Source: a virus. From it: a DNA stretch of 64,000 bases. The notes beneath the pieces are model-generated. The model searched no databases and was not told the DNA's origin. It was given only the letters and a program-made list of their open reading frames with translations. The translations under genes and the position numbers were made by a program. Location: IMG/VR virus record IMGVR_UViG_3300031595_000166, positions 1 through 64,000 of that record, one strand, 5' to 3'. Within the stretch, counting starts at the first letter, position 1; the number at the start of each line of letters is the position of its first letter. Below are positions 57,720 to 57,857 of this stretch, piece by piece.

Positions 57720-57822
57720 GGTTCTTGTGCTGGATTCGAACACAGCATTTCTTATCGAAAGAGATATCGCTTTGATGTCTCATGATTTCGGCAAGCGTCC
57801 TCCCGGTTAGACGACCAAGAAC
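57720..57822 (-). ncRNA. tRNA(Glu)-like RNA with an extended anticodon arm
   Basis: GTTCTTG/CAAGAAC acceptor stem, CGTC-TAACCGGGAG-GACG D arm, TTCGAAT T loop; 5' end coincides with the predicted TSS. Confidence 0.7.
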
Positions 57823-57828
57823 ACTTCC

Positions 57829-57857
57829 AATATAAGCACTGACTAACGACTTGTCAA
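57829..57857 (-). promoter_or_regulatory. sigma70-type promoter
   Basis: TTGACA-17-TATATT. Confidence 0.8.

Follow-up and report, generated by a model that had tools for sequence, protein, structure and literature searches.

A long-armed, tRNA-like RNA is encoded by a stretch of 64,000 nucleotides from a virus, a huge phage that is uncultured (IMG/VR record IMGVR_UViG_3300031595_000166, positions 1 to 64,000; this whole stretch is referred to here as the window). The RNA is 103 nt long, lies on the minus strand at 57822..57720 and combines the acceptor, D and T arms of a tRNA with a 45-nt arm in the position of the anticodon arm. Our results suggest that this is, with high probability, a selected and functional RNA that takes no part in decoding; by its predicted structure it cannot read codons, because it has no anticodon loop. 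In the explanation that we favour, to which we assign a probability of approximately 0.7, a non-decoding tRNA-like RNA would be produced from a gene of its own; the core of this RNA would serve as a handle and its rod would make a second contact, the molecule acting as an adaptor, a decoy or a carrier. The evidence for selection is provided by a family of 11 distinct RNA sequences in contigs of related huge phages.

A conserved tRNA-like fold with a long arm

The sequence features that the original prediction had described in this RNA, namely an acceptor stem, a D arm, a T loop in a bulged stem and an arm of 45 nt, are all correct and lie on the minus strand (Table 1). The D arm (GTCTAACCGGGAGGAC; as RNA, GUCU / AACCGGGA / GGAC, followed by G26) is of a Glu/Gln type. 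A 7-nt anticodon loop, with U33 and an anticodon that could be read, is lacking; the arm in its place is built from an outer helix (CUUGCCGAAA/UUUCGAUAAG in RNA letters) and an inner helix (GAGACAUC/GAUAUCUC) and ends in the 5-nt loop AAAGC. Two further departures from a standard tRNA, neither of which the original prediction had mentioned, are a G inserted between G7 and U8 and an additional base ahead of the 3' strand of the acceptor stem; with these bases and the bulge in the T stem, the acceptor and T stems do not form an uninterrupted stack of 7 and 5 bp. The minimum-energy fold of this RNA is a cloverleaf (-30.1 kcal/mol).

Homologues were obtained by several routes. The protein of 153 amino acids (aa) that is encoded upstream of the RNA led to a relative, the genome G001, and a metagenome pattern scan gave L011, L013 and L014, the RNA of L011 being identical to that of the window. 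Homologues of the 153-aa protein and their contigs then gave L040, L041, L043, L044, L045 and L046 and, subsequently, the more distant L055 and L056, which score 59 and 75.9 bits, respectively, with our model R1 without being part of its seed. Those homologues for which upstream sequence is available follow the 153-aa gene and a promoter, and the identity of this protein to that of the window ranges from 100% down to 46%. Searches with R1 show the RNA to be single-copy, with one locus per genome. One extra R1 match in the full record (G000 114242-114350; 21 bits, E 0.008) has no cloverleaf fold and was taken as chance.

Folded singly, the first nine sequences all adopt one and the same four-way junction. 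When these nine were aligned with MAFFT, without structure fitting, 91.6% of the cells were paired, falling to 40-50% when the 3' partners were slid by 1-3 columns; 8 of the 35 pairs showed compensatory changes, and the covariation score was reached by none of 500 shuffles. The corresponding figures for a model-fitted alignment of all 11 were 92.6% paired (39-48% after sliding by 1-3 columns), compensatory changes in 19 of 35 pairs and, again, 0 of 500 shuffles; a fitted alignment is biased towards the modelled structure and the sequences are akin, and neither set of figures is to be read as a probability. Compensatory changes occur in all five helices. The acceptor stem has 100% of its cells paired in the 11 sequences and is compensated in four of its seven pairs (2:71, 3:70, 5:68 and 6:67), and the D stem covaries at 10:25 and 13:22. 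The T stem covaries as well (GCTGG/CCAAC, GTCGG/CCGAC), its bulge being present in 8 of 11 members and absent from L043, L044 and L055. Within the long arm, six of the eight pairs of the inner helix show compensatory changes; the outer helix is 83-86% paired and has five compensatory pairs in the fitted alignment, and its GAAA/UUUC part is invariant in eight members and absent from L002, L055 and L056. The pentaloop has an invariant AAAG in all 11, followed by C, U or A and closed by a C-G or a U-A pair.

The pattern of invariant nucleotides adds to this evidence. Identical in all 11 sequences are G1, C4, G7, the extra G, U8, C9, U11-A24, A14, G18, G19 and A21 in the 5' half and G53, U54, U55, C56, A58, C61, the final AU of the variable loop and the discriminator C in the remainder. 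The universal tRNA core set (U8, A14, G18, G19, A21, T54, Psi55, C56, A58 and C61) is therewith complete in every member. The nucleotides of this set build the elbow and core of a tRNA, and selection accordingly acts on the L-shaped fold. The variable loop has four nucleotides in 10 of the 11 and ends in AU in all, and the extra base after the T stem is always present with a variable identity (A, C or G). In five of the 11 homologues, a hairpin of 13-57 nt interrupts the D loop at position 16/17; insertions are confined to this position and to the anticodon end, the two sites where a tRNA fold tolerates enlargement.

The locus is not called as a tRNA by ARAGORN, run with or without introns and with its tmRNA (transfer-messenger RNA) search, and Rfam gives no RF00005 match there, either at the gathering score or at E values up to 10, where the only matches were chance-level ones to MCS4, the S15 leader, mir-9418 and whalefall-1. 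Such silence from tRNA finders and Rfam would be expected of a decaying tRNA pseudogene with a strain-specific insertion. We consider a pseudogene extremely improbable, as the core and the promoter are kept in 11 lineages, with compensation in every helix and with a flanking protein of down to 46% identity; neutral sequence, whether pseudogene or intergenic region, would not have survived to this level of divergence. All 11 members carry the extended arm and none is an ordinary tRNA-Glu, in agreement with the earlier suggestion of an anticodon-disabled tRNA mimic.

Another reading of the long arm is an intron of approximately 29 nt, removal of which would leave a working tRNA-Glu(UUC). The sequence CUUUC adjoins a possible anticodon stem of 4-5 bp in 8 of 11 members, and a tRNA-Leu of this phage carries a 239-nt intron that is probably of group I. 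An insert of approximately 29 nt is far below the size of a group I core (about 200 nt or more) and, having a single 4-nt bulge on one strand only, contains no bulge-helix-bulge; the original prediction had discounted both types of intron. When all deletions of 20-39 nt within the arm were made in five members, none yielded an ARAGORN tRNA at default settings, and at a relaxed (90%) threshold the anticodon was split among Glu, Arg, Lys and Phe. Moreover, UUUC is missing from three members, the tip of the arm is conserved and its helices covary, and the extra junction bases and D-loop hairpins would persist after splicing. Splicing to a normal tRNA appears unlikely on these grounds, and we give an intron-containing tRNA-Glu very little weight as an explanation of the family.

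The family is rare, with 11 sequences of which two are in IMG/VR. A blastn search of the locus against 50,697 GenBank phage records gave no match, exact-pattern scans of IMG/VR (T arm plus acceptor; tip plus T loop) returned only the relative G001, and a family pattern had no match in prokaryote genomes (one per species, 185,579 species). No description of a long-armed RNA was found in a full-text search of the literature or in Rfam. Looser T-arm and D-arm patterns were set aside, as their matches were ordinary phage tRNAs and unrelated sequence.

Bulged T stems of the form GCTGNG/CCAGC were also observed in phage genes that resemble, or are called as, tRNA-Met(CAT) (L015, L021, L023, L027 and L022). 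For L022, ARAGORN calls tRNA-Met(CAT) by forcing a poor T stem; in copies of the L015 type the CAT is seen by eye, and the gene in L015 itself is not called. A tRNA-shaped sequence at L017:2683-2780 (IMGVR_UViG_3300033066_001591) is likewise uncalled by ARAGORN; it has an acceptor GCCTCG/CGAGGC, the T arm GCTGAGTTCGAATCCAGC and an irregular anticodon region, and it is unrelated to the long-armed family.

Ancestry and possible function

Judged by its sequence, the RNA descends from a tRNA of the Glu/Gln type, and its body is likely to be of the Glu type. The determinants in the body of Escherichia coli tRNA-Glu are G1-C72, U2-A71, U11-A24 and U13.G22 with A46, together with the absence of residue 47 (PMC9976931). 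The RNA of the window has all of these features, its variable loop being 4 nt long. Across the family, pair 1:72 is GC in nine members and GU in two, pair 2:71 is UA in nine and pair 11:24 is UA in all 11. G1-C72 and the 4-nt variable loop favour Glu over Gln.

In the explanation that we favour, the RNA would be cut from a longer transcript and finished like the other CCA-less tRNAs of the phage. The 5' end would be made by RNase P, if a leader exists, and the 3' end by RNase Z or another 3' nuclease, followed by CCA addition. The tRNA core would give stability and let proteins that read tRNA bodies bind; the likeliest of these is a glutamyl-tRNA synthetase (GluRS), encoded by phage or host, which would recognise the acceptor pairs and the D helix of Glu type. 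At the end of a rod of 18-19 bp, well removed from the core, the invariant AAAG pentaloop would provide a further contact, one that is specific in sequence. Access to the ribosome would be blocked by the rod, by the extra bases at the junction and by the hairpins that expand the D loop. The net role would be that of a natural 'tRNA scaffold' acting as an adaptor, decoy or carrier. In E. coli, engineered tRNA scaffolds with a hairpin substituted for the anticodon arm undergo processing and are stable (PMC3753655).

The first contact would most obviously be made with GluRS, which is encoded in both searchable genomes (G000 and G001); G001, moreover, has no canonical tRNA-Glu, and both genomes contain sealed, UUCG-capped tRNA-Glu-like genes. 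In the window these lie in rows at 51140-51720 (minus strand) and have a Glu-type D arm, a UUCG-capped anticodon arm and ACCA ends; such rows are present in G001 as well (L036:1600-2000), the sequence between the conserved flanks having diverged. The GluRS of G000 (36114-37538, minus strand) is full-length, with a catalytic domain and an intact anticodon-binding domain. Binding of the RNA to a GluRS may be regarded as a tentative proposal with a little under even odds, and actual glutamylation of the RNA appears doubtful.

Several observations weigh against the proposed explanation. The single-sequence fold is unremarkable (z = -1.5), and one sequence alone therefore proves little; it is the homologues that carry the argument against chance. 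The members of this small family are all related, such that the shuffle statistics overstate independence. Three of the pairs on which a Glu identity would depend (1:72, 2:71 and 13:22) vary inside the family, and the exact 19-nt D arm is present also in tRNA-Gln(CUG) of three Actinomycetota genomes; the Glu assignment put forward in the original prediction is partly supported, by G1-C72, U2-A71, U11-A24 and the 4-nt variable loop. The strongest determinants for E. coli GluRS are U34, U35, C36 and A37 (PMC9976931). These are not displayed by the long-armed RNA: the Glu-like CTTTC, said earlier to be buried in the stem, is indeed paired in the window and in 8 of 11 members overall (UUUC with GAAA), and in the other three UUUC is missing. 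With the anticodon determinants missing and the anticodon-binding domain retained by the phage GluRS, charging is doubtful. Finally, the neighbouring proteins have no match in Pfam, PHROGs or ESM Atlas and give no lead to a partner of the AAAG tip.

It is also possible, at a rather low probability, that the RNA is a non-ribosomal glutamate carrier, which would be CCA-tailed, charged by the phage GluRS and used to donate glutamate to a transferase, with four sealed UUCG mimics alongside. The original prediction had named the RNA as a possible substrate of the phage GluRS. The distribution of GluRS, the lack of a canonical tRNA-Glu in G001 and the sealed tRNA-Glu-like genes of both genomes would all fit such a role, as would the Glu-type body elements and the invariance of the discriminator and acceptor end. 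Against a carrier are the absence of the anticodon determinants from an RNA that would have to be charged by a GluRS with a normal anticodon-binding domain, and a discriminator that is C here and A in the sealed mimics. The discriminator of E. coli tRNA-Glu is G, which also counts against a glutamate carrier. A search for glutamyl-tRNA reductase found none, and charging alone would leave the invariant AAAG tip unexplained.

The handle-and-rod explanation can be extended, more speculatively and with a correspondingly small probability, to a GluRS-centred system outside translation that contains several non-decoding tRNA-Glu bodies. GluRS would charge or hold the core and the rod would show AAAG to a second partner, the tip on its rigid rod being the molecule's own address. 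The tip might be recognised by a transferase, by a host defence nuclease that targets tRNAs or by another tRNA through its anticodon loop. Both AAA and AAG encode lysine and are complementary to anticodon loops rich in U, for example, those of tRNA-Lys(UUU) and tRNA-Glu(UUC).

A few isolated cases of non-decoding, tRNA-shaped RNAs are known. In the present case, clear selection maintains such an RNA in a phage lineage, where it coexists with a phage GluRS and with a second set of sealed tRNA-Glu look-alikes. A testable question is therefore opened as to whether large phages employ tRNA bodies as off-ribosome carriers, decoys or adaptors, for example, against tRNA-directed host defences or in amino-acid transfer.

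Promoter, neighbouring genes and genome setting

The RNA is preceded by a promoter, TTGACA-17-TATATT (57857..57829), that matches the consensus at 11 of 12 positions and is kept in all homologues. Approximately 25 promoters of the form TTGACA-N17-TTAnATT are present on the same strand of the whole record G000, and the promoter of the RNA is, by its sequence, one of the phage's regular promoters. The near-consensus promoters have a GC-rich N17 spacer and lie almost all on one strand of G000, the minus strand (e.g., at 3529, 11057, 43089, 51125, 51706, 52002 and 54966 of the window); as a set, they point to transcription of many phage units driven by the host sigma-70. The distance from the -10 box to G1 is 7 nt in 8 of 11 homologues and 9 nt in L043, L055 and L056. 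The original prediction, that the RNA begins at the transcription start site with its first G 7 nt after the -10 box, is confirmed for the window as regards the spacing and holds as regards the start for the shallow clade, but does not extend to these three members.

Upstream of the -35 box is a conserved hairpin, which may be a regulator site or part of a terminator-promoter module. In the window (57861-57897, minus strand), ATCA(A/C)CTTAC follows this hairpin directly upstream of the -35 box. The motif AAAAGCCTACATCA is found in 3-4 copies in L040 (1960-2300) and L013 (1500-1600), and motifs resembling CCTAC/GTAGG also occur ahead of many other promoters of the genome.

Table 1. Features of the long-armed RNA and its surroundings, in window positions
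Feature	Position	Strand	Description
Whole tRNA-like RNA	57720..57822	-	103 nt including discriminator C at 57720; CCA not encoded; 113.9 bits with model R1
Acceptor stem, 5' strand GTTCTTG	57816..57822	-	Partner 57721-57727; perfect 7 bp with CAAGAAC
Extra G, U8 C9, D arm	57796..57815	-	G10 U11 C12 U13 / A14..A21 / G22 G23 A24 C25, then G26
Arm in anticodon-arm position	57751..57795	-	45 nt (normally 17 nt); two helices, one bulge
Outer helix of long arm	57795-57786 with 57760-57751	-	10 pairs, one C.A mismatch; CTTGCCGAAA/TTTCGATAAG
Bulge in long arm, TCAT (UCAU)	57785-57782	-	4 nt
Inner helix of long arm	57781-57774 with 57768-57761	-	8 pairs, one C.A mismatch; GAGACATC-AAAGC-GATATCTC
Apical pentaloop AAAGC	57769..57773	-	Tip of long arm
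Variable loop AAAU	57747..57750	-	4 nt; position 47 absent; U48 faces A15
T arm GCTG(T)G-TTCGAAT-CCAGC	57729..57746	-	T loop TTCGAAT; stem with one bulged base
Extra unpaired base and acceptor 3' strand CAAGAAC	57721..57728	-	Extra base (A, 57728) between T stem and acceptor
-35 hexamer TTGACA	57852..57857	-	Phage-typical sigma-70 promoter
-10 hexamer TATATT	57829..57834	-	G1 of the RNA 7 nt downstream
Upstream hairpin GTAGGC...GCCTAC	57871..57897	-	Conserved; followed by ATCAACTTAC just before the -35 box
109-aa open reading frame	57374..57703	-	Start 17 nt after the RNA; no terminator between

No open reading frame (ORF) of at least 40 aa overlaps the RNA on either strand of the window. A public gene call on an ENA contig places a 90-aa ORF across the promoter and the RNA of one homologue (L045:1346-1618); this ORF is not kept in other members and is probably spurious.

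In all homologues, the next ORF begins 14-55 nt after the RNA with no terminator between, and the 109-aa ORF of the window is probably co-transcribed with the RNA, as far as can be judged from the sequence. This arrangement would suit a cis-acting 5' leader, in which the tRNA-like fold protects the co-transcribed mRNA or sets its 5' end by tRNA-type cleavage; likewise, transcription in most members is predicted to start at G1, which is paired. The identity of the downstream gene argues otherwise. The 109-aa ORF follows the RNA in the window and in L014/L046. It is missing from L002, L041, L044 and L045, in which the RNA is directly followed by the gene for a conserved 321-aa protein (MNTHNT...); a different small ORF follows in L013 and L040, and other small ORFs follow in L043. 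As the RNA and promoter are fixed and the downstream gene is of at least four kinds, the constant unit is the promoter plus the RNA. A leader would, moreover, be served by a simple hairpin, which leaves the tertiary nucleotides and the AAAG tip unexplained. We therefore regard a cis-acting leader as improbable and a stand-alone RNA gene as the better description of this locus.

The 109-aa protein has no Pfam or PHROG match, and a search with it gave no related loci. In the window, the 321-aa protein is encoded at 56379-57377 (minus strand); it starts MNTHNTRTYYLR...RGDPIAC...GRKIAEGRL, conservation across the clade is strong in its N-terminal part, and searches of Pfam, PHROG and ESM Atlas gave no match. 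Three tandem paralogous ORFs of 136, 167 and 205 aa lie at 58712-60236 (minus strand); they share a short C-terminal match to DUF6745 that reaches or barely exceeds the Pfam cut-off (27.5-35 bits).

The IMG/VR virus record to which the window belongs (G000) is 157 kb long and has an estimated completeness of 32%. This record contains five ordinary tRNAs and an intron-bearing tRNA-Leu, none of which has an encoded CCA. The latter lies outside the window (G000:119585-119908, minus strand), where ARAGORN with introns calls a tRNA-Leu(CAA) split by 239 nt. The relative G001 is 406 kb in length and 95% complete, and its canonical tRNAs are only tRNA-Ile(UAU) and tRNA-Lys(UUU). A 305-aa ORF of G001 (214930-215340, minus strand) matches PolyA_pol, the family of CCA-adding and poly(A) polymerases, at 42 bits, which would suit the proposed CCA addition; no match to this family was obtained in the 157-kb fragment.

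Comparison with known systems

By sequence and structure, the long-armed RNA falls outside RF00005, tmRNA, YrlA and the family of sealed UUCG mimics. Its likeness to bacterial elongator tRNA-Glu and tRNA-Gln (RF00005) is extensive: it shares with them the 7-bp acceptor stem with G1-C72 and U2-A71, the D arm UCGUCUAACCGGGAGGACG with U11-A24, the 4-nt variable loop, the TTCGAAT T loop and all of the universal tertiary nucleotides. It differs from these tRNAs in having no anticodon loop, one additional base on either side of the junction between acceptor and T stems, a bulged T stem, a discriminator C and no CCA, and in scoring below the threshold of every tRNA model.

The sealed mimics of the same phage (window 51310-51706) are also phage-encoded, Glu-type and non-decoding, in a genome with a GluRS. 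They occur in tandem, with a short UUCG-capped arm, G2.U71, A73, a partly encoded CCA and non-canonical T loops, whereas the long-armed RNA is single-copy and has a 45-nt rod with an AAAG tip, U2-A71, C73, no CCA and a canonical T loop. These differences from the four sealed mimics (U2-A71, C73, no CCA, canonical T loop) make a separate origin reasonable, in line with the independent derivation proposed in the original prediction. Model R1 does not detect the sealed mimics, and the long-armed family is, on sequence grounds, separate from them.

The tRNA-like domain of tmRNA resembles the long-armed RNA in having an acceptor stem, a T arm and a long helix in place of the anticodon stem. The long-armed RNA differs from tmRNA in that it lacks G3.U70 (pair 3:70 being U3-A70 or G3-C70), a tag reading frame and pseudoknots and possesses a D stem; the ARAGORN tmRNA search (-m) and Rfam were negative at the locus.

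Closer in mode of action, by analogy, may be the natural tRNA-like RNAs. In mascRNA, which binds the glutaminyl-tRNA synthetase, and in the bacterial YrlA Y RNAs, a tRNA-like fold serves processing, stability or the binding of tRNA-handling proteins without decoding. The tRNA-like RNAs of murine gammaherpesvirus 68 (MHV68) and the stable RNA species 1 and 2 of phage T4 also use a tRNA-like fold without decoding. No sequence or model similarity to mascRNA, YrlA or other natural tRNA-like RNAs was detected in Rfam at E values up to 10. YrlA is circularly permuted relative to the long-armed RNA, the anticodon arm of mascRNA is short and sealed, and a long rod with an AAAG tip is absent from mascRNA and YrlA and is not known from the MHV68 RNAs or the T4 stable RNAs.

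Engineered tRNA scaffolds (Ponchon and Dardel; PMC3753655) retain the acceptor, D and T arms and carry a hairpin in place of the anticodon stem-loop, as does the long-armed RNA; the scaffolds are artificial, whereas the long-armed RNA is natural and under selection. By analogy, we would expect its mode of action to be nearest to that of a natural tRNA scaffold or of a non-coding RNA with a tRNA-like fold, mascRNA being an example. The family is a natural counterpart of the engineered scaffold, and its members reveal where a tRNA can grow without damage to the core: at D-loop position 16/17 and at the anticodon end.

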